Shown piece after piece: positions 5,688 through 46,580 of a stretch of 64,000 bases of DNA. This DNA is from a virus (lineage: Duplodnaviria > Caudoviricetes), in the IMG/VR virus record IMGVR_UViG_3300010163_000007, positions 69,340 to 133,339 of that record, one strand, 5' to 3'. The notes beneath the pieces are model-generated. The model saw only the letters and a program-made list of their open reading frames with translations. It made no database searches and was not told the origin of the DNA. Within the stretch, counting starts at the first letter, position 1. Every line of letters starts with the position of its first letter. A program made the position numbers and the translations under genes.

Positions 5688-6344
5688 GTGGATAGTATGA
5701 ATATTCTAGGGACGATCATGATACCGTCGGTTGCTGTTATGCATTCGACTATGACAAACGAATATCGAATTTCTCTAACCAATGTTCCGGTTGAGACGAT
5801 ATTCTATTCTAAAACGGCCGAACCTATTATCCCAAACAAGTCGCGGTTTGTGCTGGCATTCACGGATACAAATACTACAAAATGCGTGACCGTGTCCACG
5901 GTTTATGATTATCGACTCGATATAACGGAGACTACTATATCGCTGTCGATTGGCTATTGCGATCAGCCCGATACAGTTCCTGGGCAGTCTGCGCAAGTGC
6001 AGATTCTGCATCCGGTGATTACAGACTATCTCGCATATCGCACTGTATTGTCTATTCAATTCGCTGTAGCGATACCCAGGGTAAGCCCCGATGCATATGA
6101 TCCGATGGAAAAATGGCTGTTGGCGTATATTAAGAATTCTTATGGGCGGGTTGAAAATGCTGGAATGCAGTATCAACTAATTGAGCCAGGCGAAATCGAC
6201 CCAATCATGCTCATTCAGGGAGGCAACCTATGTGCTGTTCGGGGCTGTTTGGCAACCTATACAAATAAGACCCCGCAGGTTGCCCAAGATATTCATCGAA
6301 TATTCGAAGAATGGAAAACAATGGTGAGAAAATCATATTACTAG
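5688..6344 (+). CDS. Hypothetical protein
   Basis: 218-aa ORF coupled within the operon. Confidence 0.65.
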   Translation: MDSMNILGTIMIPSVAVMHSTMTNEYRISLTNVPVETIFYSKTAEPIIPNKSRFVLAFTDTNTTKCVTVSTVYDYRLDITETTISLSIGYCDQPDTVPGQSAQVQILHPVITDYLAYRTVLSIQFAVAIPRVSPDAYDPMEKWLLAYIKNSYGRVENAGMQYQLIEPGEIDPIMLIQGGNLCAVRGCLATYTNKTPQVAQDIHRIFEEWKTMVRKSYY

Positions 6345-8362: not shown

Positions 8363-8369
8363 ATCCAGG

Positions 8370-21990: not shown

Positions 21991-22289
21991 TAGGAGCTTA
22001 TATGCGAATTGCCCTTATCTACTTTACCCAATGACCATGGGGGTTATCCTATTTAAGGATAGCTAACGAGGGTATGCTATATAGTAGCGGCACTATATAT
22101 GCAGGTCTCGTGGGAAAACGACTAGCTAATGCGTAGGTGCTAGTTGTAAGCCTGTACAGACTATCCCCGTTGCTGGGGAGTAGGGACACTATTGGTACGT
22201 GTCAGGGTTCTAGGAAACGAAGCCCTTGAGAACCGAAACGGTAGACTGAGCAATATTGCTCAGAAGAAATAGTCGAACTTAACAAGTTG
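21991..22289 (+). mobile_element. Group I self-splicing intron (299 nt, no ORF)
   Basis: Splits EG|DSA. Exon ends in U and intron ends in G. P1: GAGGGU pairs with GCCCUU (22011-16). P10: GAAUU (22006-10) pairs with GAUUC. P7: GACUA (22159-63) pairs with UAGUC (22270-74). Confidence 0.88.
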
Positions 22290-23360
22290 GATTCCGCCGC
22301 AGACAACGCAGCTACCGCAAGAGATCCACACAACCAGGCAATCTATGGTATTAGTCGTCCGGCGAATATCTTCGACATGGACAGCAGCCTTATTGAGCGT
22401 ATCAAGGGAACGTTTAATGATGTGCTGGACATCTGTGGCGTTAAACCGGGAGACAAGTGTGATCCCGCAGACTGTCGCGTGAAGCTGATACTGTTGCTGA
22501 CAGATGGAGACATAGATGGAGATGATATTGCAATCTCCACCGTTTGTTTCCTCGCTAAGCATTGTAAACCTCTAATCGATGCGGGAATGGTAGGACGTAT
22601 TCTTCCTCCGGCCTATTCAATCCCAATCGGAAATGGGAAACGCATATATGTGCGGTCTCAACGTGAGTTCTTTGGAGAGATCGTGAAGAGCTTCATCAAG
22701 CGGAACTCAGTAGGGTTCAGAGGGAAGACGATGGCTAAGCAAGAACTTCGCCAGTTCATTCAGAAGAACTTTGAGTACGATGTTCGTTTGAATTGGCTGG
22801 CTGATCGTCAGTGTTGCGATCCCCTGCTGATGGAGTATATCGCATGGTCCTACCATGGTCATGCGAAAGATCAGAAGAAGAGCTATTGGATGGAGAAGTT
22901 CAAAGGCAAGTATAAGGGCCTTAACGTCTTAATGGAGAACGGGCAACTGATAATCGATGGCGATCCATCTGGAATGGATCATGTGAACCTTGGATTCGAT
23001 GATTACTTCGATAAGCATCTACACAAGTTCAAGAAGTATCAATCGATAAACAGTGACATCTATGGGTTCTCTGTAAACGGCGAGAAGGATAAGACGCTAT
23101 ATGAAGTAATGAGTCTGGTCCGCAGCTATATACCAGAAGGCGTGAAACGCTATAAGGGACTAGGTGAGTTAAGCACAACGGAGATGAAGGAACTGTGTAT
23201 GGATGTAGACAAGCGCACAGTCGTCATTTTCAAGTTCGAAGACTTTGAGAAGGACATGGATAAGATCAATGTGATCATGTCTACCAAGAAGCAATACGTT
23301 GAAGCTAGAAAGAGGCTTCTGATGAATATGGTATCGGATCCTCTGGATATTGATACCTAA
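22290..23360 (+). CDS. gyrB: Type IIA topoisomerase/gyrase B subunit, exon 2 (TOPRIM)
   Basis: DSA...ARD, TDGDIDG, KRYKGLGEL; spliced product 792 aa. Confidence 0.9.
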   Translation, partial: DSAADNAATARDPHNQAIYGISRPANIFDMDSSLIERIKGTFNDVLDICGVKPGDKCDPADCRVKLILLLTDGDIDGDDIAISTVCFLAKHCKPLIDAGMVGRILPPAYSIPIGNGKRIYVRSQREFFGEIVKSFIKRNSVGFRGKTMAKQELRQFIQKNFEYDVRLNWLADRQCCDPLLMEYIAWSYHGHAKDQKKSYWMEKFKGKYKGLNVLMENGQLIIDGDPSGMDHVNLGFDDYFDKHLHKFKKYQSINSDIYGFSVNGEKDKTLYEVMSLVRSYIPEGVKRYKGLGELSTTEMKELCMDVDKRTVVIFKFEDFEKDMDKINVIMSTKKQYVEARKRLLMNMVSDPLDIDT

Positions 23361-42889: not shown

Positions 42890-45253
42890 ATGGGTAAGAA
42901 TAAGAAAAAACACAAGGTCCAGAACCTGGCCATCGCTATGCCTTCAGTGGGGGTTGGCACTACGGGAGTATCGCACGCAGACGCCGGGAGCCACTATGGT
43001 ACCGTGCAACGGCGAGTATCCAAAATCAGTCCCGAAGCGCTGGTCTATGACCCGTCCGATATGAGTAAGACTCTGGATGAGCTCGAGGATGCGGTCACCG
43101 AGGGGAAGTACAAGAGTGGGTTAAAGGTAATGGACAGCGTCGTGGTAGATCGGTTCATCGATTATTATCTGTCGATGGGCGAGGATATCACTGGCGTGAA
43201 GGACATCCATGGGATGGCAAAAAAGTTCCTCAGCATCTGCAAATCGTACTATGAATATGCACCAGACAGCCAAGTACCGATTCCGGATGCCACATATGAC
43301 AAGCTTATCTCTAAGTATTTAAGCTATGATGGGAACATTGAACCCACCGGGATCATTCCAAAAGGGTCCCGGACTGTCAAGAAAGCGGAGATTAAATATT
43401 CTCTGCTCCACAACAACATGGACAAGAGCTATGCGATCCGGGAGACTGACCCTATTCCGGAAGGAGTGAAGGAATCCACTACGATCGAGCAGTTTCTGCT
43501 GAAGGTCTACACGTCATTGGGGCTGAGTCCGAAGACTGATGAGATTACAGTTGAAATCAGTCCTAAGGTTGACGGGGTGTCGGTCAATGGAACAGTATCC
43601 GGAGATCTGTTGATCGATCCTCAGACCAGAGGAAGTGAATCCGAGGCGATTAGTATAATTGGCATGAACGGCCTGCAGATCACAGAGGGGCATACGGTGG
43701 ACGAAGAGTTTGGTATTCAATATGAGCTCTTTGTCACCAAGCCTGATCTTGGAATAGCGTCAAAGCTGTTGAAACTTGACGCGCCCTATGTGTCCTGCCG
43801 GCATGCCGCAAGTGGAATTCTGAGAAGACTCTGCACGGCGGAGAATGATGAGCTGCTCAAATGTGTGTCTCTCTATCCGATCGCAAGCAGCGGTCTGGAA
43901 GGATCATATGAGGAGCGAATCGACTATCTCACGAATTTCGGGATTGTGCCGAAGGATATGATCTCCCGGGAGATGATCACTGGGAACTTGAAGGATCTTC
44001 TGGAGAAGATTGGTAAGAAGTTCGAGTACTATGGCTCGACCCATGTCAGAAGCAATCTGAGCTACGCGATTGATGGCATCGTGATCACAGTTGCGAGGGA
44101 TGAGTATCAGCAGGATCTTGGAAGAGTTGGGAGAACCAACAAATTCCAGGTCGCTCTGAAGTTCAACCCTTCCAATGCGATTGGCGTTGTCGATCATATC
44201 GCGCTCGATTGTGGAGCCAAGGGATATCGGACTCCGCAGGTCTATCTGGCCGAGCCGGTCTATCTGGATGGAGTACCGTATGATCACATTCCTATTCTGA
44301 GTATCAATTTGTTCAACTCACTCGGGCTTCGCTATGGGTCGGAAGTAAACGTCCACAGAGTGGGCGATGTAATTCCGTCTATCAGCATGGTCCGGGAGGG
44401 ATCCGGCAAGAAGATTGATCTCCCGGATGTCTGCCCTGAGTGTGGAAAAAAGCTAACTCATCTGAATTCCAAGCTCTACTGTGCAAATGCGACCTGTAGA
44501 GGTAATCTGGTTGGTATCTTCAGCCAGTTCTTTGACAGATTAGGCATGGACGGGTATGGAGATTCGTTCTCCAGAATGCTTGTTGAACAGTTGGGATGTG
44601 AATCTCTTGGAGATGTATTGGCGCTAAGCGATGAGTCTTTTGAGAGTGCCAATATCAATACCGAGCTGGCGAAGGGGTTCACTGGAGCACTGAGGACTGC
44701 CCTGAACAAATCTCAGGATTATGAAGTTCTTGCGGCGATGGGCCTTCAGGGCATCGGTGTCTCTCGAGCAAAGAGTATCTTGTCGAAGTGCCCCCTTAAG
44801 GAGCTTATTAACTTGGACAGGATTGACTGCGAGAATTTGGTAGCGTCGGCACTCGGAAATGGCTATGACGCTGTTACCGATGCATTGCGCAGCGATAGAT
44901 TCCGCAAAGCCCTGCGAGAGCTTCAGAAATACGATATTCACATCACGGAGGACTTCAGTCCAAAGACGAGAGTCGGTCATACCGGGAAGGAGCTCTCCCC
45001 TCGAACAGTGTCGCTCTGCCGGATGCTCGATTTCGAGGTTGCGGATGGCAAGGCGTTCGACATTCTGATAACTGCTGATATGGATTCTAACTCCAGCAAG
45101 ATGGAAGTTGCAAAGAGACGGAAGCTTCCTATCTACTTGGAAGAGGATTTCATCAATCGGTATATCAAGGATAGCGAGCTGAGCGCAAAGTTGACTCCAA
45201 TCGCGAACAACTTTGTTGCGGCCATGGTCAAATCTGTTGCAAAGTTTAGATAA
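42890..45253 (+). CDS. ligA: NAD-dependent DNA ligase
   Basis: PDATYD, PKVDG, DGIVI, ALKF, RVGDVIP, CPECG...CANATC, HhH, BRCT-like end. Confidence 0.92.
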   Translation: MGKNKKKHKVQNLAIAMPSVGVGTTGVSHADAGSHYGTVQRRVSKISPEALVYDPSDMSKTLDELEDAVTEGKYKSGLKVMDSVVVDRFIDYYLSMGEDITGVKDIHGMAKKFLSICKSYYEYAPDSQVPIPDATYDKLISKYLSYDGNIEPTGIIPKGSRTVKKAEIKYSLLHNNMDKSYAIRETDPIPEGVKESTTIEQFLLKVYTSLGLSPKTDEITVEISPKVDGVSVNGTVSGDLLIDPQTRGSESEAISIIGMNGLQITEGHTVDEEFGIQYELFVTKPDLGIASKLLKLDAPYVSCRHAASGILRRLCTAENDELLKCVSLYPIASSGLEGSYEERIDYLTNFGIVPKDMISREMITGNLKDLLEKIGKKFEYYGSTHVRSNLSYAIDGIVITVARDEYQQDLGRVGRTNKFQVALKFNPSNAIGVVDHIALDCGAKGYRTPQVYLAEPVYLDGVPYDHIPILSINLFNSLGLRYGSEVNVHRVGDVIPSISMVREGSGKKIDLPDVCPECGKKLTHLNSKLYCANATCRGNLVGIFSQFFDRLGMDGYGDSFSRMLVEQLGCESLGDVLALSDESFESANINTELAKGFTGALRTALNKSQDYEVLAAMGLQGIGVSRAKSILSKCPLKELINLDRIDCENLVASALGNGYDAVTDALRSDRFRKALRELQKYDIHITEDFSPKTRVGHTGKELSPRTVSLCRMLDFEVADGKAFDILITADMDSNSSKMEVAKRRKLPIYLEEDFINRYIKDSELSAKLTPIANNFVAAMVKSVAKFR

Positions 45254-45275
45254 TGAATCGATCAACAGATGTATA

Positions 45276-45672
45276 AGGATTCGTCAGTTGCTGCGCGTTG
45301 GGTAGCTGGCGAGCGATTCCATTCAACGCAAAGGCCAGGCTCGAACTGAGTCTGAGCCAAACTATAGCATTACCCTTTTAAAATTCTCCCACATGATTTG
45401 TATAAGGTGGTTCGGTACGGAACGCATATGCGGTCCTATGGCCATAAGTAGCTGGGTATGTGGTACGCTGCATGCTGATGGCGAACAAGGTGGTTTGGGA
45501 TTGACTTCAATGGCAGACTGCGTGGGCTGCTTTGGGGAAAGATGGATGGTAATGAGGTTGGTTATCATCCATGCCGTATCGGGCTGCTTGACCTAAGTAT
45601 CTGGATTTATCTAGATCGTCTATTGTGTTAGCCGATGAATGGATGGACTATTCTTGGTCCATCCATTCATTT
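45276..45672 (+). ncRNA. Candidate structured non-coding RNA (~400 nt)
   Basis: Own late promoter (AACA-GATG-TATA, 45264-75), terminal 14-bp hairpin, several G-U-containing helices, no RBS-supported ORF. Confidence 0.6.
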
Positions 45673-45756
45673 CATATTTGAGTGCTAACACGCTTATACA
45701 GTGCACCGAGGGTGAAAGCCCGGCTGCAAATATATCATGTACAGGAGGAAAAATCA

Positions 45757-46491
45757 ATGAGCAGTTTAACAATCAATACGTGGGTGAATCTGGAAAACGG
45801 ATCTTTCCACAACTTCTTTCCTGAGGTCGCGGAACTCCTCGAATCCGGCTGGTGCCGGGCGCTGACCGAGACTCTGCGACTCGGCCTTAAGGACAGCAAT
45901 AAGGTATCTGTCGAACTGCCCTGGGGCACCTACACCGCCGAGCTGATCCAGAAAGGTGAGGCCGGCAACATTACCCCGTCCTGGGAGCCCTCCAAGCGGT
46001 TTATGACCCTGCTGAACGGCGATCTGAGCAAGTCGGACAAGGACACGGTCAATCAGGAGACCTTCGATCCCACCTTTGTCCGGCTCTTCACCGACTGGAT
46101 CACGCATGGGCGCTTCTACCCGGAAGGGGCGAAGAACAAGGAGAAGACTGAGAAGCATAAGGGCATCAAGCTGAGCGATGACGAGGTGAACTACGTCCTC
46201 AACAGCTACGGGATGATGCTCGCCAGCATCGCCAAGGATAAGCAGCGAGACGGCAAGATCTTCCCGCTGGAGATCAACGGAACCTTCCCGCATGGCCGCT
46301 TCGACTTTGAGTACGATGATGACAAGATCACCCCCACGTTTGTGGCGGACAAGGTCTTCAAGCAGCTCCTCAAGGACGACGCCGCCGCGGCTTCTGCGGC
46401 GAAGTTCGACTTCACTCCTCTGCGCGAGGGCGAGGTCCGCAAAGACATTATCCCGACCAACCTGCAGGATAAGGAAGAGAAAGCAGGTTAA
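45757..46491 (+). CDS. Highly expressed protein with two HU/IHF-like repeats
   Basis: VELPWGTYTAE...ITPSWEPSKRFMTLL and FPHGRFDFE...ITPTFVADKVFKQLL; extreme codon bias; late promoter at 45687-98. Confidence 0.55.
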   Translation: MSSLTINTWVNLENGSFHNFFPEVAELLESGWCRALTETLRLGLKDSNKVSVELPWGTYTAELIQKGEAGNITPSWEPSKRFMTLLNGDLSKSDKDTVNQETFDPTFVRLFTDWITHGRFYPEGAKNKEKTEKHKGIKLSDDEVNYVLNSYGMMLASIAKDKQRDGKIFPLEINGTFPHGRFDFEYDDDKITPTFVADKVFKQLLKDDAAAASAAKFDFTPLREGEVRKDIIPTNLQDKEEKAG

Positions 46492-46580
46492 CAACGACGG
46501 AATAGGCCGAGGGTCCCTCCTCGGCCTATTCTTTTCTATGTATATATTATATCCGGAATAATAGAAGGAGGCGCGCTATA

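Follow-up and report, generated by a model that had tools for sequence, protein, structure and literature searches.

Within the 64-kb window (the whole stretch of DNA that was analysed, representing the final part of a 133-kb IMG/VR phage record with a completeness estimate of 52%), the plus strand between the gene for an NAD-dependent DNA ligase and a 244-aa gene, here called gene X, very probably specifies at positions ~45275 to 45680 a real and independent structured non-coding RNA (ncRNA) of about 400 nt that belongs to a new family. The best overall explanation is probably a stand-alone ncRNA gene, the RNA of which acts in trans as a structural RNA. An undescribed, independently transcribed structured ncRNA had been proposed at this site in an initial annotation, and this is supported by a conserved promoter, a conserved terminator, strong covariation and the absence of a match in Rfam; the sequence elements listed there are all present in the window, but the main feature of the RNA, a conserved core at 45409-45585, had been missed. 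The novelty lies at the level of the RNA family, in that no described family matches, and leaves the kind of mechanism aside.

Homologues of the element were collected by pattern scans and nhmmer, giving a set of 14 loci (the window and 13 other metagenomic loci, numbered with the prefix L) that fall into approximately six clades and have ligases 47-60% identical. Two of the five pattern-scan hits in metagenomes, L011 and L012, were chance matches and were left out. The nearest relatives, L004 and L007 (ligase 59-60% identical at the amino acid level), can be aligned over the entire gap between the ligase and gene X, with a middle stretch that is almost identical. The core is better conserved than the genes on either side, the identity between L004 and the window being 78.5% at the nucleotide level in the core, 63% in the ligase and 69% in gene X. 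The core was trimmed to its closing helix and aligned with MAFFT alone, which produced an alignment of 186 columns, and comprises the following elements.

45409 to 45585, plus strand: conserved core, a five-way junction with seven helices, identified from covariation, a covariance model (CM), RNAalifold and minimum free energy (MFE) folding
45409-45420/45574-45585, plus strand: P1, the closing helix of the junction
45423-45432, plus strand: P2
45434-45445/45490-45500, plus strand: P3, which runs via an internal loop into P4 and P5
AAGUA 45446-45450 / GAACAAG 45483-45489, plus strand: loop-E-like internal loop
45451-45453/45480-45482, plus strand: P4
45455-45476, plus strand: P5
45506-45536, plus strand: P6, with an invariant 10-nt loop ACUNCGNGGG at 45517-45526
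45537-45541, plus strand: J6/7, GAAAG
45542-45572, plus strand: P7

In the MAFFT alignment (A5), 90.1% of cells were paired, as against 37-43% when the partners were slid, and both sides had changed in 36 of the 55 pairs, as against 8-11 in the slid controls, while none of 500 shuffles reached the observed values, the slid controls being the fairer of the two tests. Realignment to the covariance model (A7) gave the same result, with 92.7% of cells paired against 37-40% in the slid controls and again 0/500 shuffles. Covariation among homologues of the region from the ligase to the next gene, which the initial annotation had set as a test of its proposal, was looked for and found to be strong (38/54 pairs changed on both sides in A7). 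Across the 14 loci the scores of the model (R1) range from 120 to 155 bits, RNAalifold without a given structure recovers P1, P2, P3, P4 and P6, and the single-sequence MFE structure of the window RNA yields the same helices. One clade lacks P5, and the length of P7 ranges between 4 and 12 bp, which is how the peripheral helices of real RNAs behave. The invariant or near-invariant positions are AAGUA and GAA..AG, the 10-nt loop of P6, GAAAG, and two G-C pairs that close P1. Several columns have G-U as their most frequent pair, and folding is biased towards the plus strand, for which comparison with shuffled sequences gave z -4.8 with the terminator and -2.8 without it (minus strand, -1.3 and +0.5), the MFE without the terminator being -126.5 kcal/mol on the plus strand and -75.6 kcal/mol on the minus strand. 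The many G-U pairs and the strand-biased folding assign the element to the plus strand, and the G-U pairs fit selection on the plus-strand RNA, rather than on the DNA or the opposite strand.

The core is set within a region that has signals for both initiation and termination.

45264 to 45275, plus strand: late promoter AACA-N6-TA, AACAGATGTATA, agreeing with the AR9 late consensus; predicted RNA start A45275
45634 to 45681, plus strand: intrinsic terminator and predicted RNA 3' end, from a terminator scan; conserved in relatives
45687 to 45698, plus strand: second late promoter AACA-N6-TA, AACACGCTTATA, for the next gene, 3' of the terminator

The late promoters of phage AR9 were mapped experimentally as AACA-(6N)-TA/G, of which the last base is the transcription start site (TSS), and have been described before protein genes and some antisense RNAs (PMC5312081). 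In the window the ligase stop at 45253 lies 10 nt 5' of the RNA promoter, and AACA-N6-TA was present in all 14 homologous loci, and in every one of the 10 distinct homologues, starting -2 to 26 nt past the ligase stop, with the conserved 5' hairpin of the RNA starting 3-8 nt beyond the predicted TSS. The motif AACANNNNTATA occurs 11 times in the window, mostly before genes, compared with 2.2 expected (~5-fold; 0/100 shuffles). The terminator consists of a perfect 17-bp stem with a 4-nt loop (hairpin 45634-45671) and a T-rich tail TCATATTT; L004 and L007 preserve 14/14 pairs by way of compensatory changes, and in all the other clades a GC-rich hairpin with a U-rich tail closes the RNA. The second late promoter is conserved in L004, L007, L009, L016 and L019, with AACG variants in L008, L017 and L018. 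By analogy with AR9, the region would read as promoter, RNA, terminator, promoter and gene, and an AR9-type late promoter would imply late synthesis of the RNA by the non-virion RNA polymerase (nvRNAP) of the phage itself.

Rfam 15, searched at E up to 10 across window positions 44500-46500, returned no relevant match, and there was likewise none at E up to 1 for six homologous loci or at the gathering score for the whole window; the families covered include RNase P, tmRNA, 6S, signal recognition particle (SRP) RNA, T-box, riboswitches, ROOL, GOLLD, OLE, HEARO and self-cleaving ribozymes. The absence of tRNA, tmRNA and RNase P, as noted in the initial annotation, was borne out by this search together with ARAGORN, which found no tRNA or tmRNA in the window. 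Elsewhere in the window, at 22055-22290, there is a weak match to the group I intron family RF00028 (14.2 bits, E 0.73, below the gathering score), which serves as a weak positive control for a search whose sensitivity is limited. A group I intron at the RNA locus was rejected, as no gene is interrupted (the ligase is complete with its stop, and gene X has its own ribosome-binding site (RBS) and ATG) and there is no RF00028 match there. RNase P, tmRNA, T-box, 5S/loop-E mimicry, K-turn and a promoter-template mimic (UA-N6-UGUU) were rejected by eye or by covariance model, their defining features being missing.

The covariance model located exactly one copy of the RNA in the record to which the window belongs and likewise one in a 287,660-bp complete genome, whereas AR9, Staphylococcus phage Machias and Listeria phage LPJP1 gave no match. 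The RNA was not found in a pattern scan of 185,579 species genomes, and nucleotide and protein searches of GenBank phages matched neither the gap nor gene X. More than 170 close ligase homologues are present in public assemblies, many of them on contigs of 230-290 kb, and in all the neighbourhoods examined a gap of 470-650 nt separates the ligase from a homologue of gene X. That the RNA is single-copy and confined to one clade of uncultured AR9-like jumbo phages (~250 kb) is strongly supported.

Outside the core, the RNA has more variable 5' and 3' domains.

45277 to 45320, plus strand: 5' hairpin, stem 45281-45292/45301-45312 and loop 45293-45300, from MFE and conserved, with several G-U pairs
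45295 to 45329, plus strand: candidate H-type pseudoknot, GCGTTG 45295-45300 / CAACGC 45324-45329
45333 to 45358, plus strand: second hairpin of the 5' domain, GGCCAGGCTC / GAGTCTGAGCC, from MFE
45600 to 45615, plus strand: small hairpin of the 3' domain, TCTGGAT/ATCTAGA, from MFE

The 5' hairpin with its G-U pairs and the terminator hairpin, both pointed out in the initial annotation, are maintained in L004 and L007 through compensatory changes (11-12 of 12 pairs for the 5' hairpin), and an equivalent duplex of 5' strand and middle strand is found in L008, L009, L010, L015, L016, L017 and L018. The hairpin CAGGCTC/GAGTCTG, from the same source, is present in the window, and the second hairpin is likewise conserved, L004 and L007 having a hairpin of other sequence in place of the one at 45333-45358; at 45600-45615 these two loci have a hairpin at the same place with altered bases. 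The complementarity of the pseudoknot is kept in the three closest sequences, the sole change being an A to G that gives a U-G pair, but TTGTGTT (45623-45630), near the 3' end, could just as well be the partner of CAACGCAA. The data are compatible with an H-type pseudoknot that stays a candidate. A proposed long-range pairing of CATTACC with GGTAATG was not supported, since the segment is deleted in L004 and L007 and the pairing clashes with P7, which is supported by covariation. Pairing of the P6 loop with a CCCAC-like 5' segment was also tried and rejected, a base of the loop being changed in L009, L010 and L013 with the partner unchanged.

In five clades, the 3' strand of the 5' hairpin can instead pair downstream over 12-13 bp, closing a subdomain of ~100 nt that is missing from the window's clade. 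In L008, L009, L010, L015, L016, L017 and L018 the middle strand (consensus GGACAGCUGGCG) can pair either with the 5' strand CGUUAGUUGU or with the downstream strand GUUGGCUGUCC. The two pairings are mutually exclusive, and both remain complementary across the clades as judged from duplex energies and from pair lists compiled by eye, in which GGACAGC/GCUGUCC, GGGCAGC/GCUGCCC and GGAUGAC/GUCAUCC replace one another by compensatory or wobble-compatible changes. As far as complementarity can indicate, these alternatives may represent a conformational switch or a folding intermediate.

The gene that follows the RNA bears on its possible partner.

45757 to 46491, plus strand: gene X, 244 aa, with a predicted tandem HU/IHF-like fold, from alignment A8, the AlphaFold2 (AF2) model and VIA-align; context and possible partner

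Its homologues are 43-67% identical (alignment A8), and its AF2 model (pLDDT 73.8, pTM 0.77) has the HU-type order of elements, H-H-E-E-E-H, twice in one chain. The initial description of the neighbour as HU-like found support at the level of fold, where VIA-align matched the model to the single-chain IHF 2iif_A (Z 7.2, root-mean-square deviation 3.6, 122 aligned, residues 1-214) and to HU, Hbb and IHF with Z 4.1-4.8 over residues 1-90, but not by sequence profile, there being no Pfam or PHROG match at E up to 0.01-1 (including Bac_DNA_binding). The top rows from VIA-align were unrelated microtubule inner proteins (Z 10.8), Foldseek returned nothing for the model at E <= 0.001, and the ESM Atlas gave no usable match. 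From the predicted model, an HU-like identity for gene X is plausible, not secure. Gene X is markedly GC-richer (0.55-0.60) than its surroundings (0.43-0.50), and its occurrence in IMG/VR was limited to the three contigs in which the RNA is present as well; a single-sequence scan of IMG/VR gave nothing with gene X, and one distant locus, L003, with the ligase.

Two loci depart from the usual arrangement. On the minus strand of L015, the locus retains the ligase, the promoter, the RNA and a terminator, and the gene that comes next, downstream of 657-802, is unrelated to the 244-aa gene, so the adjacency of the RNA and the HU-like gene is not absolute. In L010, a 52-aa open reading frame (ORF) at 5767-5925, which has an RBS of its own and two zinc-ribbon-like CxxC pairs, lies between the 3' domain of the RNA and the terminator, and the RNA there would be the leader of a small gene.

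The preferred and probable explanation for these features is that transcription would start at 45275 late in infection by the phage nvRNAP and end at the RNA's own terminator, and that the invariant unpaired nucleotides would make up a tertiary pocket or surface for binding a partner, so that the molecule would act in trans within an RNA-protein complex, of which it would be the RNA component, serving as scaffold or decoy, neither coding for a protein nor regulating its neighbour in cis. Action in trans rather than in cis is suggested because L015 keeps the RNA and terminator with a different downstream gene, and because of the small ORF before the terminator in L010. The RNA may well act mainly as a protein-binding structural RNA, although this is held with less assurance than its being a stand-alone gene. 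The most obvious candidate partner would be the co-inherited tandem HU/IHF-like protein encoded just downstream, its predicted fold and the distribution it shares with the RNA providing a hint; the specific identification of gene X as the partner is regarded as rather doubtful. The roles put forward in the initial annotation, namely with the HU-like protein, in packaging or in anti-defence, are speculative. More speculatively, and with limited expectation that all of it is correct, the element could represent a novel class of large functional RNAs peculiar to gut-type AR9-like jumbo phages, being either a ribozyme or the RNA subunit of a phage ribonucleoprotein (RNP) formed with the neighbouring single-chain HU/IHF-like protein, serving late in infection in genome organisation, packaging or host takeover, with a 5' domain that switches between two conserved conformations.

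Several points weigh against a stand-alone RNA that acts in trans. The promoter and terminator are predictions based on motifs and on comparison with AR9, to which the relationship is distant (ligase ~24% identical), and no terminator was found between the ligase and the RNA, so that the RNA may also exist as a 3' untranslated region (UTR) of the ligase. The mutually exclusive 5'-domain pairings of the larger variants would fit a switch too. The 14 sequences, in their approximately six clades, amount to a small effective sample, and shuffle controls overstate significance for sequences that are related. Finally, that related phages have the RNA and gene X side by side reflects shared ancestry and is not independent evidence, and the arrangement is broken in L015.

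An alternative considered unlikely is a cis-regulatory leader (riboswitch or attenuator), in which the core senses a ligand or protein and thereby sets the choice between stopping at 45634-45671 and reading through into gene X. A leader of this kind would be in keeping with a complex conserved fold followed by an intrinsic terminator just 5' of a gene, with the two exclusive and complementarity-keeping pairings of the larger 5' domains, with the L010 ORF on the same transcript 5' of the terminator, and with the resemblance of the 5' strand of P7 to the 5' arm of the terminator, which share AUGGAUGG in the window and are both AUGGG in L004 and L007. However, that resemblance is seen in no other clade, the 5'-domain alternatives do not involve the terminator, and the core and terminator are separated by ~50 nt and another hairpin. 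The late promoter at 45687-45698, between the terminator and gene X and conserved in most clades, indicates that gene X does not depend on read-through, and L015 retains the RNA without gene X. Rfam contained no matching riboswitch family, and the terminator switch put forward in the initial annotation, an antiterminator pairing between the 5' end and the terminator arm, retains only 8-9 of 12 pairs in L004 and L007, the nearest relatives.

Equally unlikely is that the RNA is a large ribozyme of a new kind, which would process itself or act on a different substrate, with the invariant junction nucleotides as its active site. The multi-helix junction, the near-invariant unpaired nucleotides and the conserved 10-nt loop would suit such a molecule, and large, intricately folded RNAs of bacteria and phages are often catalytic. 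On the other hand, the RNA interrupts no gene, a conserved cleavage-site signature was not identified, and similarity to Rfam ribozyme families was lacking at E up to 10 in the same scan that found the weak group I match elsewhere.

A base-pairing regulatory RNA, or a decoy against a host factor (e.g. an anti-defence sponge) that works through the conserved loops, is improbable, even though late independent expression is predicted, the single-stranded loops are invariant, and accessory or counter-defence genes are typically restricted to a clade in this way. With 400 nt and seven covarying helices the RNA is far more elaborate than known pairing small RNAs, and an RNAduplex target scan of the 133-kb record returned only the antisense of the RNA itself.

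That the element is a structured 3' UTR of the ligase mRNA, i.e. a stability or processing element and not a separate gene, is very improbable. Ligase transcripts must run through to the RNA's terminator, given that there is none after 45253, but a consensus late promoter intervenes between the ligase stop and the RNA in 14/14 loci with the 5' hairpin 3-8 nt past the start, a stabiliser would need just the terminal hairpin and not a 180-nt junction with invariant loops, and the ligase genes of AR9, LPJP1 and Machias are without the RNA. Translation of a 67-aa ORF at 45393-45596 can be dismissed almost entirely and was ruled out by the comparative data, since the frame, although open in the window, L004 and L017, contains 1-7 stops in 10 of the 14 homologues, is disrupted by a 1-nt insertion in L007 and by the lack of ~20 nt in one clade, and carries core substitutions that track base-pairing rather than codon periodicity. 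The product has no Pfam match, and its Cys/Trp/Gly-rich composition follows from the G-richness of the strand; the initial judgement that the region holds no credible ORF is thereby confirmed.

With the stand-alone structural RNA as the preferred explanation, the closest comparisons are with GOLLD and ROOL, which are large orphan structured RNAs often found in phages and prophages and established as Rfam families. The window RNA resembles them as an orphan, untranslated, multi-helix phage RNA of several hundred nucleotides that was recognised by comparative metagenomics, but at E up to 10 it does not match their covariance models, and it differs in its shorter length (~400 nt), in its architecture of a five-way junction with a variable 5' domain, and in being fixed after the ligase rather than beside tRNA genes, there being no tRNA in the window. 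Phi29 pRNA, an RNA of ~170 nt from small podoviruses with protein-primed DNA, is likewise a phage structural RNA, working in a protein machine, with peripheral helices conserved strongly in structure and weakly in sequence; however, there is no similarity of sequence or model, and nothing ties the window RNA to packaging. The complex of HBsu with scRNA (the Alu domain of SRP RNA) and HU-RNA complexes are a precedent for the binding of structured RNA by an HU-family protein in Firmicutes, and an HU/IHF-like protein is encoded beside the window RNA, but the latter does not match the SRP RNA model and gene X is predicted to have a single-chain tandem HU-like fold without a Pfam match. Group I introns are alike in size range, in a short CAGACU string and in the weak RF00028 match elsewhere in the window, whereas the CAGACU of the window RNA lies in the simple covarying hairpin P6 with no UAGUC partner for a P7, and the RNA has its own promoter and terminator. 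To our knowledge, it is seldom that a new RNA of large size is found to have invariant junctions and many covarying helices, and historically such RNAs have proved to be ribozymes, RNP scaffolds or sensors. The defined promoter and terminator, the ~180-nt core, the natural minimal and extended variants and the plausible protein neighbour make this RNA accessible to in-vitro study without a cultured phage.

The genes of the window include pieces of a multisubunit RNA polymerase, a UvsX-like recombinase and the ligase.

42890 to 45253, plus strand: NAD-dependent DNA ligase gene, the upstream neighbour, with Pfam PF01653/PF03120 and PHROG 3869 (profile positions 23-654 of 656)

From the ligase stop (45253) to the start of gene X (45757) the gap is 503 nt. 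Between the ligase of the window and those of cultured jumbo phages such as AR9/PBS1 the identity is just ~24%, and the gene order of nvRNAP-beta, small genes and ligase is common to the window and AR9. Late units of AR9 are alike in promoter consensus, in its placement 5' of the unit and in nvRNAP-beta/ligase synteny, but there is no gap after the AR9 ligase and no match to the RNA there. By this analogy, the AR9-type late promoter code would extend to uncultured relatives and drive at least one non-coding gene. An AR9-like early-type motif, GTATATATTATA, is found in the window at 8368, 28902 and 32296.

Further observations concern the flanks of the terminator and more distant ligase loci. 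The sequence TTGTGTTAG (45623-45631) is an inverted repeat of CTAACACG (45685-45692), the latter overlapping the second late promoter, so that a second, outer repeat, shared by L004 and L007, flanks the terminator on both sides. An A/T-rich motif, CAAATATATCA (45727-45737; ACAATATATCA in relatives), is conserved 20-30 nt 5' of the RBS of the HU-like gene, where it follows a small GC-rich hairpin (45704-45726) and resembles, without matching, the early-type motif. In L003 (7173-7697), where the ligase is 44% identical, the ligase is followed by a late-promoter motif AACACATGAATA and at least 430 nt without an ORF and with strong folding (z -5.6), within which the contig terminates. The L003 gap had no detectable homology to the window RNA by nhmmer or by covariance model with filters off, and either holds a different RNA family in the corresponding position or a homologue diverged past recognition. 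In Listeria phage LPJP1 (L024, 1456-3504) the ligase is annotated as two adjacent coding sequences (ligA_2 and ligA_1) separated by a gap of ~100 nt, which could represent a split gene or a gene interrupted by an intron.
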